Shown one piece after another: positions 6,001 to 55,009 of a DNA stretch of 64,000 bases. Position 1 is the stretch's first letter, and every line of letters begins with the position of its first letter. The DNA comes from Candidatus Hopanoidivoransaceae bacterium (lineage in GTDB: Bacteria; Actinomycetota; Acidimicrobiia; Acidimicrobiales; Hopanoidiivorantaceae), in contig OZ241989.1 of NCBI GenBank assembly GCA_965204495.1, positions 1,184,312 through 1,248,311 of the forward strand. The letters run 5' to 3'. Both the position numbers and the translations under genes were made by a program. The notes beneath the pieces were generated by a model that was not told the origin of the DNA, searched no databases, and worked only from the letters and a program-made list of their open reading frames with translations.

Positions 6001-7895
6001 GAAGCCGCTCCGACCGTCAAAGTCACCGCCCCCGACTCTGAATGGCCGCCCGAAGAGACATAAGGAACAGTGAAACCGCTAGCACCCGCAGTGCCCGTGA
6101 GAGTAATGGTGTAACTGCAGCTCCCGGCAGAAGCCTGCTCTACGGTGCTGATTTCAGTGGTGTCAATGCTGGTAGCGGCCCCGCAGGTAACCGTGTAAGC
6201 CATGTTCTCGGTTATATAGTCCAGCGCATTGATAGTCAGCGTCAGCAAGTTGCTGCCCTGCGTCAGCTGAGGATCGTTAAAGGTGATAGTAGAAGCAGGC
6301 CCCACCGTGATATTGACAACGCCGTCAACGCTGTGGCCGCCTTCGGAGGTGTAAGGCACCGTGAAGCTAGCCGCGCCCTCCACAGCCGTAGGCGTGATAG
6401 TAAACATACAGCCGCTGCGCGACACCGACATGAGCTCAGTAGTGTCAATGCTGGTAGCCTCCCCGCAAGAAATCGCATAGCCGCTGTGAGACTCGCTCAC
6501 ATAATCCGAAGCGTCAATCACACGGGTGCGGTTCGTGCCCAGCTGCAAGCCAGTAGGCCCCTCGTAGGTGATAGTGGAAGGCGGGCCCACCTCAATGCTG
6601 ATAGTGCCGTTCTCCGTGTCGCCGCCGCTGGAAGTGTAAGGCACAACGAAACTGGCAGAACCCTCCGTGCTCGTAGGCGTGATAGTAAACTCGCACCCGC
6701 TGCGCGACACCGACATGATCTCAGTGGTGTCAATACTGGTAGCCTCCCCGCAAGTGATCGTATAGCTAGCATCTGTCTCGGTTACATAGTCCAAGGCATC
6801 GATCACCTGTGTGCGGTTCGTGCCCACCTTCAACCCCGAAGGCGCATTGAAAGTGATGTTGGACGCAGGGATGACTTGAACGGACACGCTCTGGGTAGAA
6901 GTAGCACCCCCAGAAGAGATATAAGGCACCGAAATGGTGGCGGTTCCTGAGGTAGAGCCAGCGGTGATAGGGATGCTGCAGCCGTTCTGAGTGCCTAGGC
7001 TTATCAGAGCAGACGACTCGGTGATTGTCCCGCAAGTAATCGTGTAGGTGCCGTCAGAAGCATAAGCGCCCACATCAAGCGTGAGAGTGCCGCTAGGTAA
7101 GACAGTCGGGGTAGGCGAAGGCGCGTTAAAAACAATTGTAGAAGCCGGGCCCACCTGCAAACCGATGCGGCCGTTCACCGTGCCGCCGCCCGTGGAAGTA
7201 TAGGGCACAGTGAAGCCGGATGCCCCCTGAACATTCTTAGGCGTTACAGTAAACACGCAGCCGTTGCGCGTTACCGTAGAAATCTCAGTGGTGTCAATGC
7301 TGGTAGCGTTCCCGCAAGAAATCCTAAAATGAGAATGAGTCTCACTCGCATAGAGCGCAGCATTGATATCAAGAGTCCGGTTCGTGGCCACCGACAAACC
7401 AGAAGGCGCAGTGAAAGTAAGATTAGGAGCTGGCCTGACATTGATCACCAACCTACCGCTATAGGTACATTGAAATGTGCCCTGATTGCAGATTTGGAGA
7501 CCTGTATAGCTTTCGCGTCCTGCAGTTGCGGTAGCTCTAGCTGTGACTGTGTAAGCACAGCCATTGCGAGAAATAGAAGAAAACTTGCTTGTAGAGCTAA
7601 GTGTAATATTAGGGCAAGCGGGCGTGCCGGTAGAAGTTATGTATCGGTTTAGATCAAAAGTCGCAGATGTCCCTGCTGTGATCCAAAAGTCATTCAGGTT
7701 GGTATTTGATCCACCAGTTCTGTAAAACCATCGAAAGGTTTGAGCTTCTGCCGGGCTGGATGTGGCCACCGAAACGGCGAACAATGATGCTCCGATCAGA
7801 GCCACCGAGACGAGTGCTACGACAATTTTGCGAAGAGCACGAGGGAGCCAGCCGTGCGTCGCACGGGGGGGGGTGGTCTTAGGCAGCGACTTCAT
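1..7895 (-). CDS. Giant secreted/cell-surface repeat protein, N-terminal >2,600 aa (C-terminus lies beyond position 1)
   Basis: Absent from the ORF track, presumably because it has no stop in the window. None of the listed minus-strand ORFs between 1 and 7895 uses this frame. ATG at 7895 has GAGG 8-11 nt upstream. Hand translation gives MKSLPKTTPPRATHGWLPRALRKIVVALVSVALIGASLFAVSVATSSPAEA (signal-peptide-like), then ~100-aa modules of the type VGRNRTL.IDAS.YASDGSYTI.CGDATG.D....C.FT..P....QG.ATF.V.[FY]TS.GG. The plus-strand ORFs listed here are Arg/Gly/Ala-rich antisense shadows. Confidence 0.8.
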   Translation of the reverse strand, partial: MKSLPKTTPPRATHGWLPRALRKIVVALVSVALIGASLFAVSVATSSPAEAQTFRWFYRTGGSNTNLNDFWITAGTSATFDLNRYITSTGTPACPNITLSSTSKFSSISRNGCAYTVTARATATAGRESYTGLQICNQGTFQCTYSGRLVINVRPAPNLTFTAPSGLSVATNRTLDINAALYASETHSHFRISCGNATSIDTTEISTVTRNGCVFTVTPKNVQGASGFTVPYTSTGGGTVNGRIGLQVGPASTIVFNAPSPTPTVLPSGTLTLDVGAYASDGTYTITCGTITESSALISLGTQNGCSIPITAGSTSGTATISVPYISSGGATSTQSVSVQVIPASNITFNAPSGLKVGTNRTQVIDALDYVTETDASYTITCGEATSIDTTEIMSVSRSGCEFTITPTSTEGSASFVVPYTSSGGDTENGTISIEVGPPSTITYEGPTGLQLGTNRTRVIDASDYVSESHSGYAISCGEATSIDTTELMSVSRSGCMFTITPTAVEGAASFTVPYTSEGGHSVDGVVNITVGPASTITFNDPQLTQGSNLLTLTINALDYITENMAYTVTCGAATSIDTTEISTVEQASAGSCSYTITLTGTAGASGFTVPYVSSGGHSESGAVTLTVGAASSISFNAPSALKVGRNQTLEIDASSYASDGSYTITCSDATGVDATKMTVTRAANSCTFTVDPENTLATGSQGDTTFSVAFTSSGGATATGVFTVNIGPDSSITYNAPTDLTVGRNQTLTINASDYASDGGYTITCGDATSIDSTRLTSVSRTANTCSFTITPISTLSSSLQGNATFTVPFSSDGRATANGVVTVNIGPDSTLTFTAPTGLKVGRNRTLEINALTHATEADSNNTITCGDATGVDASKMAVTRSSTGTGCVFTVDPVNSLSPANQGDTTFSVPLTSSGGATATGTFTVNIGPDSTITWNSPGTLTVGRNRTRAIDASDYVSEVSGSGHTITCSDATAIDSTKLTSVARTANTCSYTITPITTLTPAQQGNATFTITFTSDGGHEITRTLTVNVGPDSTIVFAAPASNPAVAASRTRTIDVSSYATDGSYTISCGTITESDPDISLGTQDGCRIPIIAGSVSGQTADISIPYRSSGGHTTTGTLTLDVGAASSITFTAPTNLKVGTNRTQTINVLDYASDSGYTITCGTATNTAADAPTTGTVALASVVRDSSGNGCGYTITPTSTQGTATFTVPLTSDGGDSTNANISIEVGAASTISYNAPPTTGAGRLRVGRNLTLEIDASSYASDGSYTISCGDATGVDANKMAVTRTANSCTFTIDPVDALTPGNQGDTTFTVPFTSEGGHSRNGIVTVSIGPDSALTFTAPSTFTLGRNRTLVIDALAAVSGENAAYTVTCADATGVDANRMTVTRSSSGDGCSFTVDPVDTLAVGSQGDTTFTVAYTSTGGATASGTYTINIGPDSTITANIPPATGAGSLLIGRNLTLEIDASGYVTEASNTWTISCSDARNIHSRLSSVGRTANTCTYNIDPLNSASTGTATFVVTFTSTGGHSIDRTITVNVGLNSAITFNAPPTTGAGRLLVGRNQTLVVDAASYASETSGSGYTITCGDATSIDSTRLASVTRSSCSFTVTPVSSLSSTLQATNATFTVPYTSSGGATATGTISVKVGPDSSVTFTAPSTFTLGRNRTLVIDAAAAISGENSEYSINCADATGVDATKMTVSHTGSSCSFTVDPVDTLAAGSQGDTTFAVAFTSTGGATASGTFTVNIGPDSTITYSSPGTLTVGRNRTLEIDASGYVAETSGSSYTISCSDAAGVDTSKTAVSRTANTCTFTIDPVDALTPANQGNTTFAITFTSTGSHTITRTITVNIGPDSEITFMAPASHPAIAASRTRTIDVSSYATDGSYTISCGAITESDPDITLGTQDGCRIPVTAGATPGQTADISIPYSSSGGATLTSTLTLDVGAASSIVFNAPTGLTVGTNRTLAIDALDYAADGGYTISCGTATNTAADVPTTGTVALTSVVRDTSGNGCGYTITPTSTQGTATFTIPYTSDGGDTANGNISITVGAASTISYSSPGTLRIGRNLTLEIDASSYASDGSYTISCADATGVDNTKLTSVTRTANTCTYTIDPVDALAPADQGTTTFSVVFTSTGGHIITRTITVNIGPDSALTFTPPTGLKIGRNRTLAIDALAAVSGENAAYTVSCADATGVDANKMTVTRSSVGSRCSFTVDPVDTLAVGSQGDATFAVAFTSTGGATASGTFTVNIGPDSTIAYTAPAGLTVGRNRTLSVDLSSAATDGSYTVTCGDATNIHSRFSSVTRPDAANMPCVFAAAPLTTASLGTATFIVPFTSDGGAASTGTVSVTIGQPSAIVFTAPDPALQVGINRTRVIDASDYVRDGNYTISCLDATGVDSTKLTSVTRSSAGNGCGYTINPISTLTQSQQGHATFTVPYRSAGGHVLNQVFDITVGPASTIVYTAPVGANALTVGHNRTLTIDASSYVADGSYTIACADARSIHASIDHIIRHIVRHGCDFTITPVAGMTGAATFTIPYSSAGGHTLDGQVSVTIGAASTITYSAPSGIVIPVSTARTVDVSSYATDGSYTISCGDATGINASRLASVTHTGSSCSFEVTAAANQGSTSFVV
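100..7330 (-). repeat. Tandem ~300-nt coding modules with a ~2.45-kb higher-order repeat
   Basis: The plus-strand motif GTGTAGCTGCCGTC recurs about every 290-310 nt (for example at ~125, 420, 1035, 1640, 2230, 4085, 4685). The stretch 1633-1960 is nearly identical to 4081-4440, and 2225-2300 to 4677-4750 (offset ~2450 nt). Confidence 0.85.
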
Positions 7896-7955
7896 TTTGG
7901 CCTCACGCAGAGAGAGCTGTGCATAGCACGGGGGGGGGTGTCGTAGACGACTTTT
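7861..7955. repeat. Pair of ~30-33-nt G9-containing direct repeats (period 65)
   Basis: 7861-7893 GCACGGGGGGGGGTGGTCTTAGGCAGCGACTTC versus 7926-7955 GCACGGGGGGGGGTGTCGTAGACGACTTT. The first copy encodes codons 2-12 of the giant gene and the second lies in its 5' UTR. Confidence 0.75.
7865..7873 (-). repeat. Homopolymeric C9 tract (coding strand) in codons 8-11 of the giant gene
   Basis: Plus strand reads GCAC-G9-TGG. On the coding strand this is ACC ACC CCC CCC CGT, in frame with ATG 7895. Confidence 0.9.
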
Positions 7956-7993: not shown

Positions 7994-8031
7994 AGCAAGT
8001 GGATTATTGCAAGTCATGTGTCTGATTTGGT

Positions 8032-8817
8032 TCATGTGTCTGATTTGGTTGCTTTGATGATTTCCAAGAACGCTTTGCCTTCCAGCAACAGGGCATTGCT
8101 GATTTCTGCGTGTCGCCAAGCCATAGCAGTTCGTTTCACTGCTACGGCAGAGTGCATGTTCTTCTCAGCGATGGCTGTTGCGGCTGCGATGGCATCTTCC
8201 AGAAATGTCTCGGACACTTTGAACACCAGACCCATCTCTCTGGCTTCCTGAGCCCCTACCCATTCGGAGCTCAGCAGCAGCCACATGGCGTTCTGCCATC
8301 CGAGCAGCTGCGGCAGCAGCCAAGTGGATGCCGCCTCCGCCCCCACTCCCAGAGAGGTGAAGGGACATTTGAAGCGCGCCTGAGGCGAAGCGAATGCGAG
8401 GTCGGCGAACCCCAGCATGGTAGTTCCCAGCCCCACGGCTGCCCCGTTCACCGCCATCACCAGCGGTTTAGGGAAGCACTGCAGGGCTTGCAGCAGCTTC
8501 CAAGAATCGCCAGCTTCAGCATTGCCGGTTGCCTCGTCGCTTGCCTCGCTGCCTGCTTTATCGCTTGCCTCGCTGCTTGATGCCTCGTCTGGCAGCCCGC
8601 CCGTCAATGATGCCAGTTCTTTGAGGTCTATCCCCGCGCTGAAAGCTTTGCCCTCTCCTGTCAGCACCACTGCGCCTACGCTGCTGTCCTCGGCGGCGTC
8701 GCCAAGAGCGGCGTTCACCTCGTTGCGCAAGGCGTGATTAAAAGCGTTGCTGGCTTCGGGGCGACAAAATATCAGCACCTTCACCCGCCCTTTGGTCTGT
8801 GTCTTCAGCAAGCTCAT
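8032..8817 (-). CDS. Enoyl-CoA hydratase/isomerase (crotonase) family protein
   Basis: The track ORF is 8032..8835. The internal ATG at 8817 is preferred because AGGAG lies 6 nt upstream. Crotonase-type sequence VKVLIFCRPEASNAFN...VVLTGEGKAFSAGIDLKEL. It contains an acidic Ser/Ala-rich insert. Confidence 0.8.
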   Translation of the reverse strand: MSLLKTQTKGRVKVLIFCRPEASNAFNHALRNEVNAALGDAAEDSSVGAVVLTGEGKAFSAGIDLKELASLTGGLPDEASSSEASDKAGSEASDEATGNAEAGDSWKLLQALQCFPKPLVMAVNGAAVGLGTTMLGFADLAFASPQARFKCPFTSLGVGAEAASTWLLPQLLGWQNAMWLLLSSEWVGAQEAREMGLVFKVSETFLEDAIAAATAIAEKNMHSAVAVKRTAMAWRHAEISNALLLEGKAFLEIIKATKSDT

Positions 8818-8876
8818 GGGTTCTCCTGTCTGCATCGTTTCTGCTGGGATGTGCGCCGCGCACCGTTCTGCCTAAT

Positions 8877-8985
8877 CGCAAGTTTAACTCGGGAGTGTGA
8901 GAGCATCAGCACAGCCAGGCAGAACCGAACTCTCACCGCCCGAACTAGCGCAAGTTTAACTCGGGAGTGTGAGAGCATCAGCACA
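8877..8985. repeat. Perfect 37-nt direct repeat flanking a 35-nt unrelated segment (72-nt period)
   Basis: CGCAAGTTTAACTCGGGAGTGTGAGAGCATCAGCACA occurs at 8877-8913 and 8949-8985. The intervening 8914-8948 is GCCAGGCAGAACCGAACTCTCACCGCCCGAACTAG. Confidence 0.9.
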
Positions 8986-9017
8986 AGCACTGCTTCGGGT
9001 GGCTAGTATCGCAAGGA

Positions 9018-9953
9018 ATGGAGACTTCCAGCACCGCCGCTCTCGCTTCGCAGAATTCTGGCTCGCTAGCTCTGGAAGTTGAAGACATCTCGGTTGTGTA
9101 TCAACGCTCCATCAAAGCCCTGCAGGGCGTGAGCCTCAAGGTGCCGGAGGGCGAGGTCGTGGCGATTTTGGGCGCCAACGGCGCAGGCAAGACTACCTTG
9201 CTCCGCACCATCAGCGGACTGCTGGGCTTTCACGGCGGGGCTGTTGCTTCGGGGTCGTATCGCCTGTGGGGGCGACCAGCCGAAAAGCTAGCCCCGCAGA
9301 CGATAGTGAGGCGGGGCTTGGCACAGGTAATGGAAGGCAGGCGCATCTTGGCGCAGCTTACAGTGGAAGAAAACCTTGACTTGGGCGCCATCTCGGTGAC
9401 TAAGAAAGAAGTCCGAGAGGCTAAGCCTCCAATCGTGGAAGAAAACCTTGACCCAGGCGCCATCTCGGTGCGCAGCCGCCGCGATACTGCCGACCGCAAG
9501 CACCCTCGGCTGTGGCCGATCAATTTGCTGCGTGAGAGCGTGCGCAGCCGCCGCGACACTGCCGCCCGCAAGCACAGCTTGTTCGAGCAGTTTCCACAGC
9601 TGAGCGACCGCCGGCATTCGGTGGCGGGCTATCTCTCTGGCGGGGAGCAGCAGATGCTCGCTATCGCCAGAGCGTTGATGAGCGATCCGCGCTTCATCAT
9701 TTTGGACGAGCCTTCGCTCGGCTTGGCCCCGATAATCGCCCATCAGATCGCCGACATCATCTCTGAGATAGCCGCCGGCGGCACGACGGTGCTGCTGGTG
9801 GAGCAGAACGCGGCTATGGCCCTTGCGCTGTGCCGCTATGCCTATGTGTTCCAGACGGGCAAGGTTGCGAAGGAGGGCACGGCTGAAGAGCTGCTGGACG
9901 ACCCATACATGCAAGAGCTTTATCTGGGGCTTGCCGGGGCAGACGCAGCATGA
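9018..9953 (+). CDS. livF: Branched-chain amino acid ABC transporter ATP-binding protein (LivF type) with two 24-aa insertions
   Basis: Walker A GANGAGKTTLL, signature LSGGEQQMLAIARAL, Walker B FIILDEPSLGLAP. Its stop overlaps the next gene's start (ATGA). Confidence 0.85.
   Translation: METSSTAALASQNSGSLALEVEDISVVYQRSIKALQGVSLKVPEGEVVAILGANGAGKTTLLRTISGLLGFHGGAVASGSYRLWGRPAEKLAPQTIVRRGLAQVMEGRRILAQLTVEENLDLGAISVTKKEVREAKPPIVEENLDPGAISVRSRRDTADRKHPRLWPINLLRESVRSRRDTAARKHSLFEQFPQLSDRRHSVAGYLSGGEQQMLAIARALMSDPRFIILDEPSLGLAPIIAHQIADIISEIAAGGTTVLLVEQNAAMALALCRYAYVFQTGKVAKEGTAEELLDDPYMQELYLGLAGADAA
9363..9575 (+). repeat. Two adjacent units of 36-nt duplication plus 36-nt insert inside livF
   Basis: A1 9363-9398 and A2 9435-9470 are 33/36 identical. 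B1 9468-9503 and B2 9540-9575 are 34/36 identical. The inserts 9399-9434 and 9504-9539 are unrelated to the flanks. Confidence 0.9.
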
Positions 9954-10834
9954 CTGAAGCAACTGCTGTCAAAGATTCGGCGTCTGCTGCGGGCCAATCG
10001 CAATCTGCTGCCAGCAGATCTGATGCTGAACTTCGCGGGGCAGAACTCAGCGAGGCAGAACCGCGCGGAGCAGAACTTCGCATAGAAAATGTGAGCTTCG
10101 GAGTGGGCGGCATCTCTATCTTGGAAGATGTCAGCCTCACGGTGCGGCCCGGCGAGCTGATGGGAATCATCGGGCCGAACGGAGCGGGCAAGTCTTCGCT
10201 GTTCAACTGCATCAGCGGCATATATGTGCCGACCGTCGGGCGCATCGCGTTGGATGGGCAGCCGCTCACAGGGCTGCGACCTGTGGCAGTCGCTCGCCGA
10301 GGCGTTGCCCGCACATTCCAAAATCTCGCGCTTTTTGACAACCTGAATGTCGCCGACAATCTCATGCTGGGCCGCCACCGTCTTATGCGCACGGGTTTCG
10401 CAACGGGTGCAGTGTGGTTCGGGCGGGCACGGCGGGAGGAAGCGATCCATCGCCAGGCTTGTGCTGAGCTTGTGGAACTGCTCGGCTTGGGAGCATCAGC
10501 GCATCTGCCTGTGGGGCTGCTGCCGTACGGGGCGCAGAAGCGAGTGGAGCTAGGGCGAGCTTTGGCGTCTTCTCCCGATGTGCTGCTGCTGGACGAGCCA
10601 GTGGCGGGGATGAACACGGAAGAGACCGAGCAGATGTCGGCGATCCTGCGAAACATCCACCAGCAGCTGGACATCACGATAGTGCTAGTGGAACACGATG
10701 TGCACATGGTGGTGGGCCTGGCCGAGCGCATCTGCGCGATCAACTTCGGCCAAGTGGTGACAGTGGACGAGCCGCAAGCCGTGGTGTCGCACCCGACGGT
10801 CGTGGAAGCCTATTTAGGGTCGGAGTGGTCGTAA
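9950..10834 (+). CDS. livG: Branched-chain amino acid ABC transporter ATP-binding protein (LivG type)
   Basis: Walker A GPNGAGKSSLFN, Walker B LLLDEPVAGMN. LivG-like C-terminus HPTVVEAYLG. Confidence 0.85.
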   Translation: MTEATAVKDSASAAGQSQSAASRSDAELRGAELSEAEPRGAELRIENVSFGVGGISILEDVSLTVRPGELMGIIGPNGAGKSSLFNCISGIYVPTVGRIALDGQPLTGLRPVAVARRGVARTFQNLALFDNLNVADNLMLGRHRLMRTGFATGAVWFGRARREEAIHRQACAELVELLGLGASAHLPVGLLPYGAQKRVELGRALASSPDVLLLDEPVAGMNTEETEQMSAILRNIHQQLDITIVLVEHDVHMVVGLAERICAINFGQVVTVDEPQAVVSHPTVVEAYLGSEWS

Positions 10835-11855: not shown

Positions 11856-13079
11856 ATGAATACAATAACCCGACTTTTGAGACGAGGGTTCGGAGGCAAC
11901 AGCGTGCCCAGCCAACCTCGCTCAAGCTCAGCCAACTCCCCAGAAAAGCCGCCTGCTGGCTCTTCAAGTCTGTCTTCTGCTGCATCCCCACCGCGATTCC
12001 TCCCAGGCTGGGATGCCAGGGCCGCTGTCTTCGCAATCGTGGTTTTGATCGCGCTGCTGCCAGTGCTCTTGGACAGCCCGTTCTGGATGAATGTGCTGGT
12101 CACCGCCGGTGCTTATTCTGCCGCAGCCATCGGTTTGAATATCCTCACGGGCTACACAGGGCAAGTCTCGCTCGGACACGCAGCGTTCTTGACCATCGGC
12201 GGCTACGCAGCAGGATACTTCGGCGCATCGCAAGGCTGGACGCTGATTCTATGGCTGGGAATGGCTGCAGTGTGCGGAGCGATAGTCGGCGGGGTGGTCG
12301 GCCCGTTCGCCCTGCGGGTGAAAGGCGACTATCTGGTGGTGGTGAGCTTGGCTTTGCTGTTCATCACCTCCCATGTGGTGGAAAACTGGGATAGCGTCAC
12401 CGGCGGGCACGACGGCATTTCAGTGAGCAAAGCTTCACTGGCTTTCGGCCCCATCAACTTCGGCGACCTGCGTCTGTTCGGCAGGGAATTCAGCCGAGAG
12501 GAGGGCTTGTTCTATCTCGCTTGGCTGCTCGTGGGCATTTTTGCCGTGATCGCACGCAACATCATGCGGTCTCGCCCCGGACGAGCCCTGCAAGCCGTAC
12601 GCGACCGCGACACCGCCGCCGAAGTCTTAGGCGTAAGCAGCGCCCGCTACAAGATCGCCGCTTTCGTGCTCTCCAGCGCCATGGCAGCCACCGCAGGCGG
12701 AGTGATAGCCGTAGCGCAAAGATTCCTAACCCCGAACGAGCCGCTAGCCGAGCTTTTCATCTCCATCCAGTTCGTAGCCATAATAGTGGTAGGAGGCGTG
12801 GCGACCATCTACGGCTCCGTGCTAGGAGCAGTGCTGCTGGTAGCCCTCCCAGAAGTCATCAAAGAATACACCCACTGGTTTGACTTCACAGTCCCGCTTT
12901 TTGACCGACCCCTAGTGTCGTCCTCAGGCTTGGATCAAGGCTTGTTCAACCCCGGTTCATTCAGCAACCTGCTCTTCGGATTGCTGCTAGTAGGCTTCCT
13001 GCTGCTCTGGCCCAGGGGTATCGCAGGCTGGCTACAATCGCTCCGCGCCCTCCTGCGCACACTATCGCTTCGCCGCTAA
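11856..13079 (+). CDS. livM: Branched-chain amino acid ABC transporter permease (LivM type)
   Basis: The track ORF is 11790..13079. ATG 11856 (MNTITRLL) avoids a long overlap with livH. Polytopic; LivM-like motif GQVSLGHAAF. Confidence 0.75.
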   Translation: MNTITRLLRRGFGGNSVPSQPRSSSANSPEKPPAGSSSLSSAASPPRFLPGWDARAAVFAIVVLIALLPVLLDSPFWMNVLVTAGAYSAAAIGLNILTGYTGQVSLGHAAFLTIGGYAAGYFGASQGWTLILWLGMAAVCGAIVGGVVGPFALRVKGDYLVVVSLALLFITSHVVENWDSVTGGHDGISVSKASLAFGPINFGDLRLFGREFSREEGLFYLAWLLVGIFAVIARNIMRSRPGRALQAVRDRDTAAEVLGVSSARYKIAAFVLSSAMAATAGGVIAVAQRFLTPNEPLAELFISIQFVAIIVVGGVATIYGSVLGAVLLVALPEVIKEYTHWFDFTVPLFDRPLVSSSGLDQGLFNPGSFSNLLFGLLLVGFLLLWPRGIAGWLQSLRALLRTLSLRR

Positions 13080-31887: not shown

Positions 31888-32006
31888 AGATCGCGGATTG
31901 GTTGGCGAGGGTTTGAGAGCTTTCTAGCGCAGACCTGGGTTCGCTTGGGTGCTCTGATTCAAGGGGGTAGGCTTTGAAGGAATTAGAAATTAGCAGCGGA
32001 GATTGT

Positions 32007-36004: not shown

Positions 36005-37819
36005 ATGACATCAAATGCAGCAGATTCAATGTCTGAGCCGGCAGTGTCTGAGCCGGCTGTGCCGGATTCACTGGCAGTGTCGGACTCACTGTCAGTAGTG
36101 GCGTCGGAGACCGCAATGTCGCCGTCGGAAACCGCTGTCTCATTCGCAGACGAGCTCGACCCGCCCGAACTGGTGCCGGCCAGAATGCTCACGCAGTTTC
36201 TCTACTGCTCAAGGCTGTTCTATCTGGAGTGGGTGAATCAGCAATGGGACGACAATGCCCACACCGCTCAAGGCGAATATGTCCATCGGGCTGTGGACAG
36301 GATAGGCGGTGCCGCGCCGGCAGCAGACGATGACAATCCGTTTTTGGAGGCGAGGTCTCTGAAGCTGTCGTCTGAGAAGCTCGGTCTGGTGGCTGTGGTC
36401 GACTTGGTGGAAGGCAAAGGCGGCGAAGTTCATCCTGTGGATTACAAGAAAGCCAAACTGCCCGGCGATTTGGCATTGCAAACCTGGGAGTCGCACAGGG
36501 CGCAGCTTTGCGTGGCAGGGTTGCTGCTGCGAGAGGCAGGCTATGTGTGCACCAGCGGCAGCATCTACTATGCCGGCAGCAAGCGCAGGGTGGAGGTGCA
36601 TTTTGACGACGAGCTGGTAGACCAGACGATGTCGGCTCTGGAGGAACTGCGCGAAACGGCCACTCTGCCCGAAGCCCCGCCTCCGTTGGTGGACAGCCCC
36701 AAATGCCCCGACTGCTCGCTGGTGGGGATATGCCTGCCTGATGAAGTCAATCTTTTGGCAGAGATTTCCAAGCATCCGCCTCGCCGCTTGGTGCCTCGCG
36801 ATCCTCAGTCTCGCCCTGTTTATGTGGCTGAGCAGGGGGCGAGAGTGGGCAAGGCCAAAGGTCGGCTGCAAATCAAAAAAGACAGGGAAGTCATCCAAGA
36901 GGTGCGCTTGCTGGATGTCTCGCAGCTTTGTCTCTATGGCAATGTGCAGGTGTCTTCGCAGTGCGTTCGCGAGCTTTTGGGCAGGGATGTGCCGATCTGC
37001 TGGTTCAGCTTCGGCGGATGGTTCGCTGGCATGGCAACGGGTTTGCCTGCCAAGCATGTGGAGCTGCGGCGGCGACAGGTTGGCCGTTCTAGCGTGGGCA
37101 GAATGGACATCTCCAAAGCCATCGTGCGCTCCAAGATTTTGAACTCCCGCACTTTGCTGCGCAGAAATTTCAAAGGGGGCGATGAAGCTGTGCACCAGCG
37201 GACGCTGGCATCGCTCAAATATCTTGGGAAGGTGGCGGGCAGGGCTTCTACGGTCGCTGAGCTCATGGGCGTTGAGGGCGCGGCCGCACGGGATTATTTC
37301 CAAGCTTTCAACTCTATGCTCCGTGAAGAGCACGGCTTGCCCGGGCGTCCGTTTTCGTTTGAGGGGCGCAATCGCCGTCCGCCGTTGGATCCGATCAACT
37401 GTCTTTTGTCTTATTGCTATTCGCTGCTGACTAAGGAGTTGACGGTCGTGGCTCATGCTGTGGGGTTTGACCCTTACATCGGCTTTTTCCATAAGCCTCG
37501 GTTCGGGCGGCCTGCTCTGGCTTTGGATTTGGCCGAGGAGTTTCGCCCGTTGGTGGCGGATTCTGTTGTGATCACTTTGATCAACAATGACGAAATCAGA
37601 GCTTCGGATTTCGTGGTTCGCTCGGAAGGGGTTGCGCTCACCGATGCAGGCAAGAAGAAAGTCTTGGGGGCTTACGAGCGGCGTTTGGATGTGGAAATCA
37701 CCCATCCCGTGTTTGACTACAAGATCACATATCGCCGTGTTTTCGAGCTTCAAGCCCGTCTGCTGGCTGCCACGCTTTTGGACGAAGTGGCGGAATACAC
37801 GCCGTTTGCGACTCGGTGA
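36005..37819 (+). CDS. cas1: Cas4-Cas1 fusion protein (type I-G adaptation)
   Basis: N-terminal Cas4 features: LYCSRLFYLEW, DYKK, CPDCSLVGIC. The C-terminal ~330 aa is Cas1-like: VYVAEQGARVGKAKGRLQIKK...EGAAARDYF...NCLLSYCYSLL. Confidence 0.85.
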   Translation: MTSNAADSMSEPAVSEPAVPDSLAVSDSLSVVASETAMSPSETAVSFADELDPPELVPARMLTQFLYCSRLFYLEWVNQQWDDNAHTAQGEYVHRAVDRIGGAAPAADDDNPFLEARSLKLSSEKLGLVAVVDLVEGKGGEVHPVDYKKAKLPGDLALQTWESHRAQLCVAGLLLREAGYVCTSGSIYYAGSKRRVEVHFDDELVDQTMSALEELRETATLPEAPPPLVDSPKCPDCSLVGICLPDEVNLLAEISKHPPRRLVPRDPQSRPVYVAEQGARVGKAKGRLQIKKDREVIQEVRLLDVSQLCLYGNVQVSSQCVRELLGRDVPICWFSFGGWFAGMATGLPAKHVELRRRQVGRSSVGRMDISKAIVRSKILNSRTLLRRNFKGGDEAVHQRTLASLKYLGKVAGRASTVAELMGVEGAAARDYFQAFNSMLREEHGLPGRPFSFEGRNRRPPLDPINCLLSYCYSLLTKELTVVAHAVGFDPYIGFFHKPRFGRPALALDLAEEFRPLVADSVVITLINNDEIRASDFVVRSEGVALTDAGKKKVLGAYERRLDVEITHPVFDYKITYRRVFELQARLLAATLLDEVAEYTPFATR

Positions 37820-37942
37820 GACTGTCAATGAAACCCAGCTACTGCTTTAAAAGTCTGAACCGAGAACACGCGTCATTTTCAACTAGTGAAACTGTCAACT
37901 AGGTAAAACTGCCAACCCGATGAAATTCTCAATCCGCTAGCA
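37820..37942 (+). repeat. Five copies of a ~17-nt CTGTCAAC...GAAA-type unit between cas4/cas1 and the binding-protein gene
   Basis: GACTGTCAATGAAA (right after the cas4/1 stop), TTTTCAACTAGTGAAA, CTGTCAACTAGGTAAAA, CTGCCAACCCGATGAAA and TTCTCAATCCGCTAGCA. Confidence 0.6.
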
Positions 37943-37944
37943 TT

Positions 37945-39204
37945 ATGTTGATGAAATTCGTTATTTGTAAATCACTTGCTGCAGGCATAGCAATCCTGTC
38001 TGCTCTGTCGCTTTTTGCGGCTGCTTGCGGAGGCGATGATGGCAATGGCGGAGACGCGGATGCCGTGTCTGGCAGTGTCTTGAAGCTCGGCTACATCCTG
38101 CCTCAAACCGGCAGCTTGGCTTATTTGACAGATGCTATGGAAAACGGTGCGGCATTGGCAGTGGAGGAAGTCAATCGGGAGGGTATTCAAGAGATAGAGA
38201 TGGTAGCCGGCGACTCTGGCACCAATGCCGATGTAGCCAACAACACGGCCGACAGCCATATTGCCGAGGGCGTGCAGGGCATTGTCGGTGCGGGGGCATC
38301 GGCTGTTTCATTGGCAATCATCGACAAAATCACCGGCGTGGGGCTTCCGATGATCTCGCCGTCTAACACCTCTCCAGCTTTCACCGCCTATGACGACAGC
38401 GAGCTTTATTTCCGCACAATCGCTTCGGATGTGCTGCAAAGCAGGGTGATCGCCGACCTTATCGCCGAGGACGGCGCACGCCGAGTGGCCATCATGTATC
38501 GTGCCGATGCCTACGGAAAGGCTTTGGCTGACGCTTCCGAGCAAGGTCTTATCGCCAACGGCGTGGAATCCGCAGGCAAGTTCGCTTTGGATCCCGAAGG
38601 CAGCACCTTCACATCTGAGGTGCAGGAGGTTGCGGCATCGGGGGCCGATGCTGTGATTTTGATTGCGTTTCGCGAAGGCGGGCGGATCATCGCCGAGATG
38701 ATTGAGGCTGAAATCGGGCCAGGCGACATCGCTCTGTATGTGACGGCTGGTTTGGCTGTAGCCGATCTATGGGAGTTGGTCAATCCAGAAGATCGTTCGG
38801 CGGTGCAGGGAATACGAGGGACGCGCACCGGCGAGAGCGAGTCGGCTGAGCGGACTTTCAGAGATCGCTTTGCGGAATTCGCGCCTGGCGTGGATGATGC
38901 TTATGCTCCCGAAGCCTACGATGCGGTGGTGATCTATGCCTTGGCTGCTTTGGCGGCGGGAAGCAATCAGGCATCGGATTTTGCGTCTGAAATCAATGGC
39001 GTGACTCGTGGGGGCACAAAGTGCTCGCTGTATGCAGATTGCGCCGAGCTGGTGATGGCGGGTGAAGACATTGATTACGAAGGCGCGGCTGGTTCGCTGG
39101 ATTTCGTGGATGCCGGCGAGCCGAGCGTAGCGACTTTTGACATTTTGGAGTTTGATGCCGAGGGTGAAATCGTGGTGCTTTCGTCTAGGACGCTTCGGGG
39201 TTAG
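37945..39204 (+). CDS. ABC transporter substrate-binding lipoprotein (Liv/PBP1 type) located between cas4/cas1 and cas2
   Basis: Lipobox LFAAAC. LKLGYILPQTGSLAYL...GIVGAGASAVSLAI resembles branched-chain amino acid binding proteins. Confidence 0.75.
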   Translation: MLMKFVICKSLAAGIAILSALSLFAAACGGDDGNGGDADAVSGSVLKLGYILPQTGSLAYLTDAMENGAALAVEEVNREGIQEIEMVAGDSGTNADVANNTADSHIAEGVQGIVGAGASAVSLAIIDKITGVGLPMISPSNTSPAFTAYDDSELYFRTIASDVLQSRVIADLIAEDGARRVAIMYRADAYGKALADASEQGLIANGVESAGKFALDPEGSTFTSEVQEVAASGADAVILIAFREGGRIIAEMIEAEIGPGDIALYVTAGLAVADLWELVNPEDRSAVQGIRGTRTGESESAERTFRDRFAEFAPGVDDAYAPEAYDAVVIYALAALAAGSNQASDFASEINGVTRGGTKCSLYADCAELVMAGEDIDYEGAAGSLDFVDAGEPSVATFDILEFDAEGEIVVLSSRTLRG

Positions 39205-39389: not shown

Positions 39390-39686
39390 ATGAGTCGGAA
39401 TACCTATCTGGTCGCCTACGACATTTGCGGCGATGAAAAGCGTTTGCGGAAAATCCACCAATGCATGTGCGGGTATGGCTACTCTCTGCAATACTCGGTG
39501 TTCTTGTGCTCGCTGGATCAGGTTGAGCTGATCGACCTGAAGATGGATGTGAGCGAAATCATGAACCACAGAGACGACAGCGTAATGATCGTGTCACTAG
39601 GCCCCTCAGAAACGGCGGTGGAAAGTCATTTTGAATTCATGGGAGTCACCCCACCGAAATTTGACGAGGGAGCGGTCATCGTCTAG
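39390..39686 (+). CDS. cas2: Cas2
   Basis: 98 aa, YLVAYDICGDEKRLRKIHQCMCGYGYSLQYSVFLC. GAGGGA RBS. Immediately upstream of the leader and array. Confidence 0.85.
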   Translation: MSRNTYLVAYDICGDEKRLRKIHQCMCGYGYSLQYSVFLCSLDQVELIDLKMDVSEIMNHRDDSVMIVSLGPSETAVESHFEFMGVTPPKFDEGAVIV

Positions 39687-39968
39687 TTGGTTGCGCTGGT
39701 GGCGGTTGTCCGAGCATCTACAGCAGACAAAAAGATTCGCAGTCGATTCTGAAATAGCAAAGATATTTCTTGAGGGGGATGGGGGGTTCGAGGGGTTCCT
39801 GCGAGAGGTCGTGTGGCAACACCATCCCCAGCCACCTCTCGTGCCCTGCTACAATAACCCCAAAGAGGGGCATCCGAACCTTGGCAATCTATTCCCCAAA
39901 CAAAAAATCCCCACCCACTCGCAATCGGCCAATTCTCCCCAAGCCAATTGCGCCCAACAAAGTGAGTG
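39687..39968 (+). promoter_or_regulatory. CRISPR leader with candidate extended -10 TGCTACAAT at 39847-39855
   Basis: Non-coding stretch between cas2 and the first repeat. TGCTACAAT lies ~113 nt before repeat 1. The ORFs listed here are repeat or leader artefacts. Confidence 0.55.
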
Positions 39969-42363
39969 CTATCGGGGGGCAGTCCGCCCCCCCTTCATTG
40001 AAGCTGAGAAACTACATGATGAGCTTCGGGGAGGCTTATCTATCGGGGGGCAGTCCGCCCCCCCTTCATTGAAGCAGACCGCCTGATTACTTGCATCGTC
40101 ATTCTGAACCCCCTATCGGGGGGCAGTCCGCCCCCCCTTCATTGAAGCTCGCCGTGGTCTGTCGTCTCTACATGGACTGGCACTCTATCGGGGGGCAGTC
40201 CGCCCCCCCTTCATTGAAGCGCTTGACAATATGCGAACGCTGGAGGCGCACATCCTATCGGGGGGCAGTCCGCCCCCCCTTCATTGAAGCCACTCGGTTG
40301 AGAGATGAGACTGGTGCGGAGGCTTTCTATCGGGGGGCAGTCCGCCCCCCCTTCATTGAAGCTCAGCCATACAAACAGCCTAGCAGATAAGTTCCCTCTA
40401 TCGGGGGGCAGTCCGCCCCCCCTTCATTGAAGCCGCATGTCTTGGGCTGGTCGTTGATGACCCTGATTGCTATCGGGGGGCAGTCCGCCCCCCCTTCATT
40501 GAAGCAGGAACACGCCGAGCGCAGTAGCAGCGATGAAGCCCCTATCGGGGGGCAGTCCGCCCCCCCTTCATTGAAGCGAAGAATATGAGATGAGGTCTCT
40601 GCTGGATGGCTCCCTATCGGGGGGCAGTCCGCCCCCCCTTCATTGAAGCCGCTCTTGCGCTGTGCGCATCAGCGAGTTGAGCGTGCTATCGGGGGGCAGT
40701 CCGCCCCCCCTTCATTGAAGCAGCGGCATCTACACCACCAGCCAAGCCAAACCCTGCTATCGGGGGGCAGTCCGCCCCCCCTTCATTGAAGCTAGCTGGC
40801 AGCTATCAGCCTGCCCGCAACCTTCTGCTATCGGGGGGCAGTCCGCCCCCCCTTCATTGAAGCCTGGCAGAGCAAGGAGTTGCCAGACATGCATGCTGCT
40901 ATCGGGGGGCAGTCCGCCCCCCCTTCATTGAAGCGGCAGCGATGGCTGACGGCATCGCCTGCCTCGGCAGCTATCGGGGGGCAGTCCGCCCCCCCTTCAT
41001 TGAAGCTCGTGGATTGCTGATCCTATTGTTGCTAGCACGAGCTATCGGGGGGCAGTCCGCCCCCCCTTCATTGAAGCATTCAGTGTCGGCACAGAAAAAG
41101 TCGCAAGTTCGGCTATCGGGGGGCAGTCCGCCCCCCCTTCATTGAAGCTCTGGTGAAGAAGCCAGCGATACCACCATCTTCAACTATCGGGGGGCAGTCC
41201 GCCCCCCCTTCATTGAAGCCGCAGCGTCTTCTTCACTTGAGCGTCCGATAGGTATCTATCGGGGGGCAGTCCGCCCCCCCTTCATTGAAGCGGCTGGGGA
41301 CACCTCCACAGCGCAACAGCCTCTATCTATCGGGGGGCAGTCCGCCCCCCCTTCATTGAAGCATCAGGACACCTTTGCCATTGCCTCCATCGCCGTCTAT
41401 CGGGGGGCAGTCCGCCCCCCCTTCATTGAAGCAAGACCCTGAGAGTTTTGAATCTGAGAGGTTTTTACTATCGGGGGGCAGTCCGCCCCCCCTTCATTGA
41501 AGCTTATCAGGCAGGCTTCACGGGGCAGCTAGCCCCGTCTATCGGGGGGCAGTCCGCCCCCCCTTCATTGAAGCAGAGTGAAACAAGCTAGTTCCATTTT
41601 GGCACGAAAACTATCGGGGGGCAGTCCGCCCCCCCTTCATTGAAGCGGACTTGTTAAATGCGGATGATGAGCTTGTGGCGGCCTATCGGGGGGCAGTCCG
41701 CCCCCCCTTCATTGAAGCTGGCGGTCTCTCATCCCGCCGCAAGCCATAAACGAACTATCGGGGGGCAGTCCGCCCCCCCTTCATTGAAGTCTGCGCCTTT
41801 GTAGCCTGTGCCTGCCACGACAGACCTATCGGGGGGCAGTCCGCCCCCCCTTCATTGAAGTGATATTGTGTCATTCTCAGTCTCGTGTTTGTGGTGGCTA
41901 TCGGGGGGCAGTCCGCCCCCCCTTCATTGAAGTTCTACCAGTTCTGAGGTTATTTTGGTGACGGCTGACTATCGGGGGGCAGTCCGCCCCCCCTTCATTG
42001 AAGTTTGGCAATACTTTGAGGCTCTGCCCGCTCAGGTGGACTATCGGGGGGCAGTCCGCCCCCCCTTCATTGAAGTGCCTATCTGGGTAGCGTTCGTATG
42101 AGTCACCTGCGCCTATCGGGGGGCAGTCCGCCCCCCCTTCATTGAAGTGCAGTCCACGCGATCACTCCAATAGTGATTCCTATGCTATCGGGGGGCAGTC
42201 CGCCCCCCCTTCATTGAAGTGCTTCACACGCACTAGCAGCCTACGCCCGACTCACCTATCGGGGGGCAGTCCGCCCCCCCTTCATTGAAGTTATTCCATC
42301 TCCACCTGATACAAAAGCCCAGAGCGCCTATCGGGGGGCAGTCCGCCCCCCCTTCATTGAAGC
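39969..42363 (+). CRISPR. CRISPR array: 34 repeats of 36 nt and 33 spacers of 34-37 nt
   Basis: The repeat is CTATCGGGGGGCAGTCCGCCCCCCCTTCATTGAAGC. It contains a 7-bp stem GGGGGGC/GCCCCCC with a 5-nt loop, followed by an 11-nt tail ending ATTGAAGC. I located every repeat start by hand from 39969 to 42328. Repeats 26-33 end in T instead of C. Confidence 0.97.
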
Positions 42364-42391: not shown

Positions 42392-44062
42392 TTAGAAATC
42401 TAGGTCTGGGGCGGGTTCTAGTTGTCCTGCTGACAGGGGGGTTTCTGCTTCGCTTTCTGTGAGGAACACCACGTCGCCGTCTATGAATTGTGGTCGTAGG
42501 GGGTCTTTTCTGTGATACAAATTGCAGGGCTCTAGCACTCTGTAATTTTTGCCCTTGGTCACACCGCCTCTCAAAATCATCTCTTGGACTGATTGAGCGT
42601 TCACAGCCAGCAAGAAAACAGCCAATGGCAATTCACCGATGCCTAGAGGGTGATGTTCGGGGCGAACCACAGGGCTGCGTGGTGTCACCATGTATGAGTT
42701 TCCCCTGAATTTTTCTTTCTCTTCTACAAGTTTTTTTAATCCCTTCAGATGATGATCCTTTGAGTTTCCTACTTCAAACGCCAAGGGATCCTCTGTCTCT
42801 CCGCCGAAAATGAAATCTACCTCATATGTTTCTCTTAGGCGCCAATATTCCAGAGTCATCCAACTGTTCTCTGCCAGCTCTTTTAATGCCGCTCCCGCCG
42901 CATTTTCCAGCACATGGCCTTTCTTTGGGAGATCTTCCAGCCCTGATGTCCCCATTCTCCTAACGGCCGAAGGAACGGCTGGGTCAAAGAAGCAGTATTT
43001 CTGGTTGCCAGCCTTCCGCATCGGTGCGTCGGAATAGGCGTCTAGTCGGAAGAGAATGTTCGCATTCTCCAAATGGGAGAGATATGTGCTTGTTGTTTTT
43101 CCCTGAGCTTCGCCCAGCTGTTTGCCAATCTTGGCAACTGTGGTCTGCTTGCCGAGCAGACCCGCGACAGAATGCATTACGGCCTCAAGAGTTTTCCGAT
43201 CTCTGACATCATGGAAGGCAACTATGTCTTTGTCAACCGCCCTGCCTACTACCTCTTTGAGGTATCCATGATCCCGTCTGACCGCTGCTCTGAGGCTCGG
43301 GTTATGCGTGGAATGGTCATATCCAGTGATGCACACGGGGTATCCGCCTGTGATGAGGTATCTGTCCAGAGCAGTCGCTACCTGCTCGGGAACGGGCGAG
43401 ACCTGCGGGATTGATTGAAGCCGTGCTCGCAAAGATGGATATCCTGTTCTGCACCATTTTGGAATGATGCTGGCATCGCCGAAAACAAATTCGCACCATT
43501 CCATGAAATTGCAAGCCATCAAGCGATATTCTGCCCAGCGGTCTGGGCCGCTTTCTGGTTTGCGCTTGTCGTTATTGGCAAGGATCATCCCAGAACTGGA
43601 AGACGCTAAAACTCTGATGGGTCTGTTTTGAGCGAGAAGATTTTTTAGCCACAGGTCCCAGTCGTCGCTTGCTCCTATCTCGTCCAAGAACAGAAAAATC
43701 GGCTCATCGATGCTGGCATCGGGGCACAGCAGCAACAAGGCATCTGCTATCGCCCCTAGATTTTCCATCTGAAGCTCCGGGTGATCCAGTTCCACGAAAA
43801 AGATGCGCTCTCTGGGTATTCCCTTGTCTAGCAAGCTGTCAATAGACTGCCAAAGCAGCGTGGTTTTGCCAGACCTGCGGGGGCCCAGCACAAGATGGTA
43901 GCATCGCGGGTCGTCTCGGATGAGGGTGTCGGGCAGAACTCGCATCATGTGCCTGTGCTTGGGCAGGGATTTCTCCGTCAGCTCGGACGAGTCTGTTTTC
44001 CACCCGTTCTGATCCTCGAGTATTTCTTGGAAGCGGGGTATGTCTATGTATTGAAATGCCAT
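42392..44062 (-). CDS. AAA+ ATPase of the COG1373 type (AAA_14 plus DUF4143-like), second copy
   Basis: Walker A GPRRSGKTT and Walker B FLFLDEIGASDDW. The track start is 44098; ATG 44062 (MAFQYIDI) has GGAGG 7 nt upstream. AT-richer than the array and the cas4/1 region. Confidence 0.75.
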   Translation of the reverse strand: MAFQYIDIPRFQEILEDQNGWKTDSSELTEKSLPKHRHMMRVLPDTLIRDDPRCYHLVLGPRRSGKTTLLWQSIDSLLDKGIPRERIFFVELDHPELQMENLGAIADALLLLCPDASIDEPIFLFLDEIGASDDWDLWLKNLLAQNRPIRVLASSSSGMILANNDKRKPESGPDRWAEYRLMACNFMEWCEFVFGDASIIPKWCRTGYPSLRARLQSIPQVSPVPEQVATALDRYLITGGYPVCITGYDHSTHNPSLRAAVRRDHGYLKEVVGRAVDKDIVAFHDVRDRKTLEAVMHSVAGLLGKQTTVAKIGKQLGEAQGKTTSTYLSHLENANILFRLDAYSDAPMRKAGNQKYCFFDPAVPSAVRRMGTSGLEDLPKKGHVLENAAGAALKELAENSWMTLEYWRLRETYEVDFIFGGETEDPLAFEVGNSKDHHLKGLKKLVEEKEKFRGNSYMVTPRSPVVRPEHHPLGIGELPLAVFLLAVNAQSVQEMILRGGVTKGKNYRVLEPCNLYHRKDPLRPQFIDGDVVFLTESEAETPLSAGQLEPAPDLDF

Positions 44063-44411
44063 CGTTCTACCTCCGTTATCTGAATTATGTATCTGCATTA
44101 TACATGTTTTTCAGTTATATGACAACCTATTTTGTTGATGATTTTGCCATATATTGGAGATTGATAGCATTTTCTAGGATTTTAAGGCTTATAGAACTGG
44201 AAATCTTGGAATATCTAGAATATAGATATCCAAATTCCAAGAAGCTAGATTTGTCCATCACAGACGGAATTAGCTTGCCTAATTCGCTTCTGCTATGTTT
44301 GTGCCGGCGCAGGCGAGTGAAGTGGTCGGCGTGTCAGTGATTGTGCCGTATGTGACCTGCCGAGAGCACGGCATCGATTATCTCTGCGGTTAGTGCTTTC
44401 ACCGCGCCGGC

Positions 44412-44447
44412 TTTCGGGGGGCGGTCCGCCTACCTTAATTTGAAGCT
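44412..44447 (+). repeat. Degenerate CRISPR repeat (28/36 identical to the array repeat)
   Basis: CTTTCGGGGGGCGGTCCGCCTACCTTAATTTGAAGC versus CTATCGGGGGGCAGTCCGCCCCCCCTTCATTGAAGC. A weaker repeat-like stretch begins 72 nt later (~44484-44523). Confidence 0.75.
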
Positions 44448-44863: not shown

Positions 44864-44991
44864 GCGGTGATGGTGATGTGTCGCAACCCACCTTGTTTCT
44901 CGAGCGGGCCGCAGGTGCAGTCGGCTACTGGTGCTGCGCGGTGATGGCGATGTGTCGCTACCTACCCTTCGGGGGGGGGGGCGATTTGAAG
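44864..44991 (+). repeat. ~32-nt direct repeat pair (period 74) ending in a G11 tract plus GATTTGAAGT (CRISPR-repeat-like 3' end)
   Basis: GCGGTGATGGTGATGTGTCGCAACCCACCTT at 44864 and GCGGTGATGGCGATGTGTCGCTACCTACCCTT at 44938, followed by C-G11-CGATTTGAAGT. CTTAAATTGAAGC occurs at ~45058-45070. Confidence 0.6.
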
Positions 44992-45090
44992 TGACAAGGC
45001 GGGATTAGTTTGGATTAATTCATTCTAGTTAATTTTGGGAGGGTTCGTCAAGCTTGTCTTAAATTGAAGCCAGATGGTTTGCGCTGAGAA

Positions 45091-45198
45091 GTTGCTATAT
45101 TCTATCAAAATCTGGTGTGGGGCAAATTACAAGTCATCGCCGTTGTCGGCCGAAATAAGATGTTGCTATATTCTATCAAAATTCGGTATGGCGCATAT
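45091..45198 (+). repeat. AT-rich 37-nt direct repeat pair with 71-nt period (two-repeat mini-array-like)
   Basis: GTTGCTATATTCTATCAAAATCTGGTGTGGGGCAAAT at 45091 and GTTGCTATATTCTATCAAAATTCGGTATGGCGCATAT at 45162. They are 32/37 identical and the first 21 nt are perfect. Confidence 0.7.

Positions 45199-48294: not shown

Positions 48295-48295
<1 letters not shown>
47363..48295 (-). CDS. Short Cas8u-family (Csb3/Csx17-like) putative large subunit
   Basis: The ATG at 48295 overlaps the cas3 TGA. The N-terminal LTGLDGTNPLGFFAALGVQVLFADE resembles the PLG..LKALGV..L motif I recall at Csx17/Cas8u N-termini. Last gene of the effector operon. Confidence 0.5.
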
Positions 48296-52777
<4,482 letters not shown>

Positions 52778-54013: not shown

Positions 54014-54084
54014 GATTTTCTCCTTGATGGCTTGTCTGTGTTTTGGGTGTTCTGCTGTTGGGTAGGGTGTCAAATCGCAATTGC

Positions 54085-54190
54085 CAATACACTAGCAGGG
54101 GGGTGTGATGAGCATCGCTGGATCGGCTTGCTAGGGGCTGAATTTCATCAACGACAAGACTAGCGGGGGGGTGTGATGGGTATCGTGGCG
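54085..54190 (+). repeat. Pair of ~36-nt G-run direct repeats (period ~68-70) upstream of csb1
   Basis: CAATACACTAGCAGGGGGGTGTGATGAGCATCGCTGG and CAAGACTAGCGGGGGGGTGTGATGGGTATCGTGGCG. Each reads on the minus strand as CATCACACCCC..GCTAGT, a -10-like element. Confidence 0.7.
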
Positions 54191-54954: not shown

Positions 54955-55009
54955 ACCTCACGGTACATAGTAGGGTGTGCCTGTGATACCGCAGAATGCC
55001 CATCACGCC

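Follow-up and report, generated by a model that had tools for sequence, protein, structure and literature searches.

A 72-nt repeat-insert-repeat unit upstream of livF as a very probable scar of off-target spacer integration by a resident type I-G CRISPR-Cas system

Off-target spacer integration, in which a spacer is placed outside the CRISPR array, has been shown mainly in Escherichia coli cells that overproduce Cas1-Cas2, and to our knowledge its frequency and cost in nature are poorly documented. Target duplications measure 2-15 bp for transposons and about 14-15 bp for casposons, the inserts in both cases are kilobases long and present in multiple copies, and we know of no other mechanism that yields target duplications of ~36 bp. 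The E. coli events, in which off-target integration spawns neo-CRISPR arrays, were described by Nivala, Shipman and Church 2018 (Nat Microbiol 3:310) and are treated in 10.1101/148544, PMC7054753, PMC6698737 and PMC11788318; according to these sources, integration is possible anywhere in the genome and a new site can take further units. The natural cases in the 2018 work come from two other species, and the evidence for them, as 10.1101/148544 presents it, is circumstantial. Ectopic acquisition inside arrays has been reported for the type II-A systems of Streptococcus thermophilus and S. mutans (PMC7999890, PMC5338259, PMC8265633), and the type I-G Cas4/1 fusion has been characterised biochemically (PMC10504553).

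The locus considered here lies in a stretch of 64,000 nt, which in its whole length we call the window. Like a type I-E neo-CRISPR site of E. coli, it contains a spacer-sized insert in a repeat-length duplication of non-CRISPR DNA, and as in those accounts such events are spread over more than one place and a site can take further units. It differs in being natural, where the E. coli sites are reported from Cas1-Cas2 overexpression; in belonging to a type I-G system with a Cas4/Cas1 fusion and being polymorphic across a wild species complex; in including two in-frame units in a conserved gene under purifying selection; and in showing a recurrent micro-hotspot that resembles neither repeat nor leader. 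With type II-A ectopic acquisition it shares insertion away from the leader-proximal repeat, but there the target is a genuine internal repeat of the array and here it is unrelated chromosomal DNA. Casposons and transposons (for the casposase, PMC6977970) likewise produce direct repeats by staggered strand transfer and gap repair, whereas here the duplication is ~36 bp and the insert a unique segment of 35-38 bp. Orphan or mini CRISPR arrays also place one or two repeat-spacer units away from the cas genes; their repeats are recognisable and can be processed by Cas proteins, while those described here are promoter or coding sequence lacking the repeat hairpin. The unit upstream of livF is, in our judgement, very probably a scar left by off-target (ectopic) spacer integration by the resident Cas4/Cas1 fusion and Cas2.

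This unit, event A, is formed by a perfect direct repeat whose upstream and downstream target copies occupy positions 8877..8913 and 8949..8985 of the forward strand, with a spacer-sized insert between them at 8914..8948 on the same strand. The window has exactly two copies of the repeated sequence, CGCAAGTTTAACTCGGGAGTGTGAGAGCATCAGCACA, which are 100% identical and lie 72 nt apart from start to start; in a shuffle control, none of 100 shuffles gave a match. The 35 nt between the copies, GCCAGGCAGAACCGAACTCTCACCGCCCGAACTAG, are unrelated to the flanks and missing from empty alleles. The left boundary is firm; the right one could lie at either of two adjacent positions, 1 nt apart, and the unit can be divided either as 36+36 or as 37+35, giving a target copy of 36 or 37 nt and an insert of 35 or 36 nt. 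An earlier note on this DNA had described a perfect 37-nt repeat around an unrelated 35-nt insert, had equated its 72 nt with the size of a CRISPR unit and had mentioned two similar units within livF. The first point is borne out by the coordinates above; as for the others, the units of the array measure 70-73 nt, with a repeat of 36 nt and spacers mostly of 35-37 nt, and each unit in livF does consist of 36-nt repeats and a 36-nt insert.

Event A is situated in a divergent intergenic region of 182 nt, between an enoyl-CoA hydratase gene (8032-8835, reverse strand) and livF, with 32 nt separating its end from the livF start codon (ATG at 9018). Adjoining this ATG, the duplication leaves the native sequence of 36-37 nt plus 32 nt intact, and the hydratase side is preserved likewise; the main consequence is that the two divergent genes stand 72 bp further apart. 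As the native sequence immediately upstream of the ATG is unchanged, any effect of event A on livF expression would probably be mild. A scan of positions 8700-9150 for promoter and terminator consensus sequences gave no match.

The window encodes a complete type I-G CRISPR-Cas system, and the adaptation module of this resident system is intact. It includes a cas4/cas1 fusion gene (36005..37819, forward strand), encoding the type I-G adaptation integrase, which scores 744.6 bits against the NCBIfam Cas4g/Cas1g model (cut-off 560) and also matches Pfam Cas1 and Cas4, and cas2 (39390..39686, forward strand; 34.9 bits against NCBIfam Cas2, cut-off 24.5). A protein identical to this Cas2 adjoins arrays in 10 other contigs. 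Between the cas2 stop codon and the first repeat lies the leader (39687..39968, forward strand), followed by the type I-G array itself (39969..42362, forward strand), in which 34 repeats, each of 36 nt, alternate with 33 spacers of 34-37 nt (16 of 36 nt, 14 of 35 nt, two of 34 nt and one of 37 nt). The other type I-G components, Cas3g (48295-51144), Csb2 (51131-52777) and Csb1 (52781-54073), are encoded on the reverse strand. The repeat, CTATCGGGGGGCAGTCCGCCCCCCCTTCATTGAAGY, ends in ATTGAAGC and folds into a hairpin with 7 G:C base pairs at -17.5 kcal/mol. Because the duplicated segments of the units have the length of this repeat and the inserts the length of a spacer, the units match the resident system.

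The same 36-nt repeat is found in all eleven arrays available, from the window and ten related contigs (L094-L103); the related arrays hold 29-59 repeats. Together the 11 strains contain 438 distinct spacers, among them 20 of 34 nt, 112 of 35 nt, 186 of 36 nt, 85 of 37 nt and 25 of 38 nt. All but one (437/438) are private to one array, in strains whose cas regions are 94-96% identical, which points to very active adaptation: judged by spacer content, turnover is clearly to be taken as extremely fast and adaptation as ongoing in the population. Strains differ in the last base of the repeat, position 36, which can be C, T, G or A; along the arrays it changes in blocks, and in the window it is C nearest the leader and T farther off. 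Such blocks fit leader-proximal growth in which each acquisition copies the leader-proximal repeat. Among the canonical spacers we find none that target livF in the same genome, and no bias in end composition that could be used to orient the ectopic inserts.

Some further features of this region can be recorded here. A gene for a LivK-like periplasmic binding protein (37945-39204) lies between cas4/cas1 and cas2, an arrangement found in 10 of 10 related contigs. About 2 kb past the end of the array there are degenerate solitary CRISPR repeats, one at 44411-44446 (28/36 identical) and one at about 44966-44995, separated from the array by a gene for a DUF4143 AAA-ATPase (42392-44098); this layout suggests that an insertion has divided the array and left them as a remnant.

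To compare alleles at livF, each related contig was treated as a strain. Clade 1, the window's own clade, is represented by eight related contigs, and clade 2 by five (L004-L008) at about 85% nucleotide identity; the outgroups also include L093, an intermediate contig, and L009 (OY282367.1), an uncultured Acidimicrobiales chromosome that is the closest GTDB genome. Another contig, L101, comes from the same sample series as the clade-2 contigs and has 95% nucleotide identity to the window, like other clade-1 contigs. The window carries event A together with two units in livF, events B and C. Three contigs (L001, L089 and L090) have A with neither B nor C, two (L003 and L092) have A and C without B, and two (L002 and L091) have B and C without A. 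Alleles lacking exactly one repeat plus the insert, for which the earlier note had proposed a search, are thus at hand in L002 and L091: 72 nt are missing, neither more nor less, and one copy of the target is left. The empty sites in livF are equally clean, with a 144-nt gap where B and C are both absent (L001, L089 and L090) and a 72-nt gap where B is absent (L003 and L092). Each clade-1 target is single-copy in L093, in clade 2 and in L009, and with the single targets in the relatives' empty alleles this makes insertions A, B and C the derived state. All four combinations of A and B occur, and the flanking SNPs are mosaic; units have therefore been shuffled by recombination, deleted between repeats, or both.

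The empty-site alleles contradict an origin by local tandem duplication or replication slippage of 72 nt with later divergence of the middle, since they and the outgroups hold the 36-nt target once and nothing like the insert. Slippage is active nearby, as low-complexity in-frame indels of the hydratase gene and, in L094, a 32-nt tandem array show, but those neighbouring indels have other lengths and lack the repeat-insert-repeat form, and divergence of the middle would have to be squared with repeats that are perfect around an insert that is unrelated. We consider the chance of this origin practically negligible. A miniature transposable element, a REP-like dispersed repeat or an assembly artefact would account for the direct repeats and for nothing beyond them, and is extremely improbable. 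Throughout the 1.6 Mb compared, no repeat has a copy away from its orthologous site and every insert is unique; the inserts are 35-38 nt long, mutually unrelated and have no local homolog. As to an artefact, event A is seen in six contigs (the window, L001, L003, L089, L090 and L092, the five traceable ones deriving from two assemblies) and is missing from two clade-1 contigs. The earlier note had itself named a dispersed multi-copy family and a series of tandem-duplication intermediates as findings that would overturn its proposal; the repeat is confined to orthologous sites, as just described, and the relatives show clean presence or absence.

The same comparison bears on the age of event A. 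The insert is 33/35 identical in L001, L003, L089, L090 and L092, and these other strains bearing A have about 90-96% nucleotide identity to the window. In the three contigs where both repeat copies align cleanly (L001, L003 and L092), the copies differ at 4 positions. With the same insertion in five diverged contigs and diverged copies in three of them, event A is not shown to be recent, and the suggestion of a recent event that the earlier note had drawn from the perfect identity in the window does not stand.

Other large length differences between strains, in frame or intergenic and none with the repeat-insert-repeat form, are found at 8529-8590, 9956-10069, 10834 and 11866-11994. Among them are expansions of low-complexity sequence within the hydratase gene, a difference of 114 nt at the livG N-terminus and one of 158 nt after livG. 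At 8014-8049 the window has a perfect 18-nt tandem duplication, two copies of TCATGTGTCTGATTTGGT, where the aligned L001-L003 have a single copy. A 31-nt element consisting of a short palindrome followed by nine G occurs twice, 65 nt apart (7845-7875 and 7910-7940), in the intergenic DNA upstream of the 3' end of the hydratase gene. In L001, L002 and L092 a giant gene of ~7450 aa, rich in leucine-rich repeats, adjoins the liv locus upstream of the hydratase gene; several contigs with this gene, at coverages from 6x to 57x, share the assembly ERZ25070167.

Within livF, event B comprises a repeat at 9363-9398, an insert at 9399-9434 and a second repeat at 9435-9470, and event C a repeat at 9468-9503, an insert at 9504-9539 and a second repeat at 9540-9575, all six segments being 36 nt long and read on the forward strand. 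The repeats are 92% identical in B and 94% in C, and each unit is in frame and adds 24 codons. The two events overlap by 3 nt, GTG, such that the first 3 nt of C are the end of B, and B occurs only in alleles that also bear C. In a scan of the whole window outside the array, A, B and C are the sole long repeat pairs at an offset of 72.

The livF gene itself (9018..9953, forward strand) encodes an ABC transporter ATPase of branched-chain amino acid or urea type (Pfam ABC_tran); the best NCBIfam matches are LivF and UrtE, both under their curated cut-offs. The window protein has 311 aa, of which 48 residues are inserted, and has no exact entry in the contig index. Its homologs come in three lengths, 263, 287 and 311 aa, and are 96-99% identical outside the inserts. 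In an alignment with PDB 1JI0 the 48 added residues fall within a short loop that follows the Q-loop helix, where 55 residues of the query (132-186) face 7 of 1JI0. Between insert-bearing alleles pN/pS is 0.04-0.12 (pS 0.12-0.17, pN 0.005-0.016), and in the insert zone taken separately, where sites are few, it is roughly 0.13-0.27. Insert-bearing livF alleles remain under purifying selection, and from these low ratios it follows that livF has been functional since the insertions; on the same codon comparison, LivF with two 24-aa additions appears still to work. A structure prediction of LivF with the inserts was poor (mean pLDDT 59.5, below 50 for residues 90-179) and was set aside.

Units of the same kind have arisen elsewhere in the population. 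In clade 2, L006 has event C', in which two perfect copies of a 37-nt sequence, GTCGCCGCGACACTGCCGAGCGCAAACATCGTCTGCT, enclose a different insert of 35 nt; its duplicated segment begins 7 nt downstream of the clade-1 C segment, and this shift makes C' an event separate from C. L004 and L005 also carry the C' unit, with an insert that has 4 mismatches to that of L006 over 33 aligned nt (88%). They hold in addition a second unit, C'', with a further shift of 2-3 nt in its duplicated segment, and so contain a mini-array in which two inserts lie between three repeats, in frame throughout. At the clade-2 site in livF, L007 and L008 have no insertion, and over 14 kb L006 and L007 differ by 13 indels of at least 20 nt, only one of which, C', is 72 nt. 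Event E, in L097, is an insertion of 73 nt (a 35-nt perfect repeat and a 38-nt insert) located in the gap between a convergent pair of genes, 7.6 kb upstream of cas2. It is private to L097: the empty target, at 31911..31945 on the forward strand of the window, is without the insertion in the window and 9 other contigs. In all there are at least six independent events with one architecture.

The sizes of these events can be set beside those of the resident array. Duplications measure 36-37 nt in A, 36 in B, 36 in C, 36-37 in C', 36-38 in C'' and 35 in E, compared with 36 nt for the repeat, and inserts measure 35-36 nt in A, 36 in B, 36 in C, 35-36 in C', 34-36 in C'' and 38 in E. More generally, pairs of ~36-nt repeats outside the array concentrate at offsets of 70-75 in an offset scan; unrelated liv loci, 1.2 Mb of sequence, contain few of them whatever the offset. 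Four of the events have one cut inside positions 9465-9478 of the window, a zone of ~13 nt in livF. A weak junction pattern is also seen, with 5'-GTG leading into the duplicated segment at four of six clade-1 junctions.

Several other repeat pairs came up in the comparison and are listed here as candidates. At 37793-37828 / 37864-37898 a 36-nt segment over the cas4/cas1 stop codon recurs 71 nt further downstream; the copies are about 75% identical, one base is deleted, and a 35-nt insert lies between them. This candidate old event, F, is present in 9 of 10 related contigs. L102 was considered as a clean empty site for it and rejected, as the gap there is 93 nt and not 71. Two more pairs, 44864-44892 / 44938-44966 (offset 74, 29 nt at 90%) and 45087-45127 / 45158-45198 (offset 71, 41 nt at 85%), are intergenic, between the ATPase gene on the array side and an ORF at 45223-46659, and are present in L099 too; both could represent operator pairs or ectopic units of some age. 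In L094, a repeat at offset 64 proved to belong to the ordinary 32-nt tandem array and was rejected as an ectopic unit.

The inserts themselves were searched for in several collections. The core sequences of inserts A, B, C and E gave no match in IMG/VR, nor did that of A in JGI metagenomes; inserts A, B, C, C' and C'' gave none among INPHARED phages and PLSDB plasmids; and five inserts with two allelic variants gave none among the 438 canonical spacers. These negative results are uninformative, for the collections lack this lineage and its phages: the canonical array is also without a phage match and its newest spacer without a match in IMG/VR. A degenerate livF pattern found nothing in the JGI contigs, from which it follows that the lineage is absent there.

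It is at this point that a process of another kind has to be weighed, one that makes staggered cuts ~36 bp apart and fills in short DNA, with the CRISPR size match a coincidence; another Cas1-family or transposase-like enzyme encoded elsewhere, or end joining with captured DNA, would be candidates. That no protospacer or PAM was found for any insert, that the targets are dissimilar to the repeat and the leader, and that our view of this genome spans 64 kb are all in keeping with such a process. It would, however, have to produce by chance both a duplication length and an insert length within about 1-2 nt of the resident system in six events, and the sole integrase seen in the window is Cas4g/Cas1g. 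We regard it as improbable. The dissimilar targets count against off-target spacer integration too, as does the 35-nt duplication of event E where 36 nt would be the length of the repeat.

The target of event A was examined for signs of a function. The duplicated sequence is identical to the CRISPR repeat at 7/36 positions, a value unremarkable among all positions of the window, and its fold (-4.7 kcal/mol, z = +0.75) is no more stable than that of shuffled sequences. A search for leader-like sequence in the livF region gave local alignment scores of 19-20 against a null mean of 22.6, and neither the window nor the livF region matched an Rfam family. The ancestral target does contain a palindromic motif, GGGNGTGTGATGAGCATC, which recurs at 54099, 54167 and 55009 and which event A doubles; the copy in the window is broken by a 1-nt deletion. 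The palindrome GGGGTGTGATGAGCATC is found three times near the csb1 promoter (54099-54116 and 54167-54184 on the forward strand and 55009-55026 on the reverse strand), with 0.1 expected by chance, and the GGGGTGTGATGAGCATC motif is also present in the event A target of L091 and clade 2, with a near-match in L009. The palindromic motif may be the binding site of a regulator, and it is a matter of speculation that a regulator bound at the palindrome in A recruits the integrase.

These observations bear on whether the unit is functional, either as a one-spacer mini-CRISPR giving a processed guide or as a regulatory element that duplicates a regulator site upstream of livF. The doubling of a palindrome that recurs near the csb1 promoter would suit the second form, and the gain of a second unit at a new site, as in L004, would suit the first. 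Set against both are the low match to the CRISPR repeat, a fold far short of the -17.5 kcal/mol of the true repeat, flanks in which nothing like a leader was detected, the lack of an Rfam match, and an allele that is polymorphic, empty in related strains and has its palindrome broken in the window. A functional unit is quite improbable. The earlier note had raised the idea of a one-spacer neo-CRISPR seed; the anatomy of off-target integration is there, whereas the seed of a working CRISPR is not supported, given the 7/36 match and the want of a hairpin or a leader-like flank. The units are most probably passive scars and not working CRISPR arrays.

We return to off-target spacer integration, the reading that we prefer. 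The anatomy of the units, their match in size, their derived and polymorphic state, their recurrence, the intact adaptation module and the fast turnover of the arrays are direct observations; from them we infer catalysis by Cas4/Cas1-Cas2 and an origin of the inserts as prespacers. In outline, an integrase loaded with a spacer-sized fragment of 35-36 bp, a processed prespacer, would attack ordinary chromosomal DNA in place of the leader-repeat junction. Two staggered strand transfers on opposite strands would fall ~36 bp apart, a distance set by the integrase's own ruler, and gap repair would copy the 36-bp stretch between the cuts, leaving target, insert and target, that is, an insertion of 72 bp. 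At least five further accidents of this kind would have occurred in the Acidimicrobiales population (B and C; C' and C''; E). Units would persist where they do little harm, either between genes or as in-frame additions to a variable LivF loop, and recombination would then shuffle them among strains or remove them, possibly by precise deletion between the 36-nt repeats.

What is described here is a natural case of a known kind of event, ectopic CRISPR integration, with unusually rich population evidence. The population is a natural record of such integration, with filled and empty alleles, recurrent hits and a new site that has gained a second unit, and two of the insertions have been incorporated into a conserved ABC ATPase under purifying selection. 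For annotation, this means that 72-nt repeat-insert-repeat units inside genes of CRISPR-bearing genomes are not necessarily assembly errors. The system also opens the way to testing what a type I-G integrase recognises without leader or repeat, how new arrays begin, and whether CRISPR adaptation imposes mutations at a measurable cost or now and then supplies novel protein sequence. Possible, though still short of probable, is the wider proposal that the type I-G integrase has a real non-CRISPR hotspot in livF, as four independent events from two clades within a zone of ~13 nt would indicate, that it is guided there by some cue other than resemblance to repeat or leader, and that it is a frequent and recurrent natural source of in-frame insertions of 24 codons which a conserved protein can tolerate. 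If this is true, CRISPR adaptation would act as a mutagen in nature, adding novel stretches to proteins and able to found arrays where there were none.
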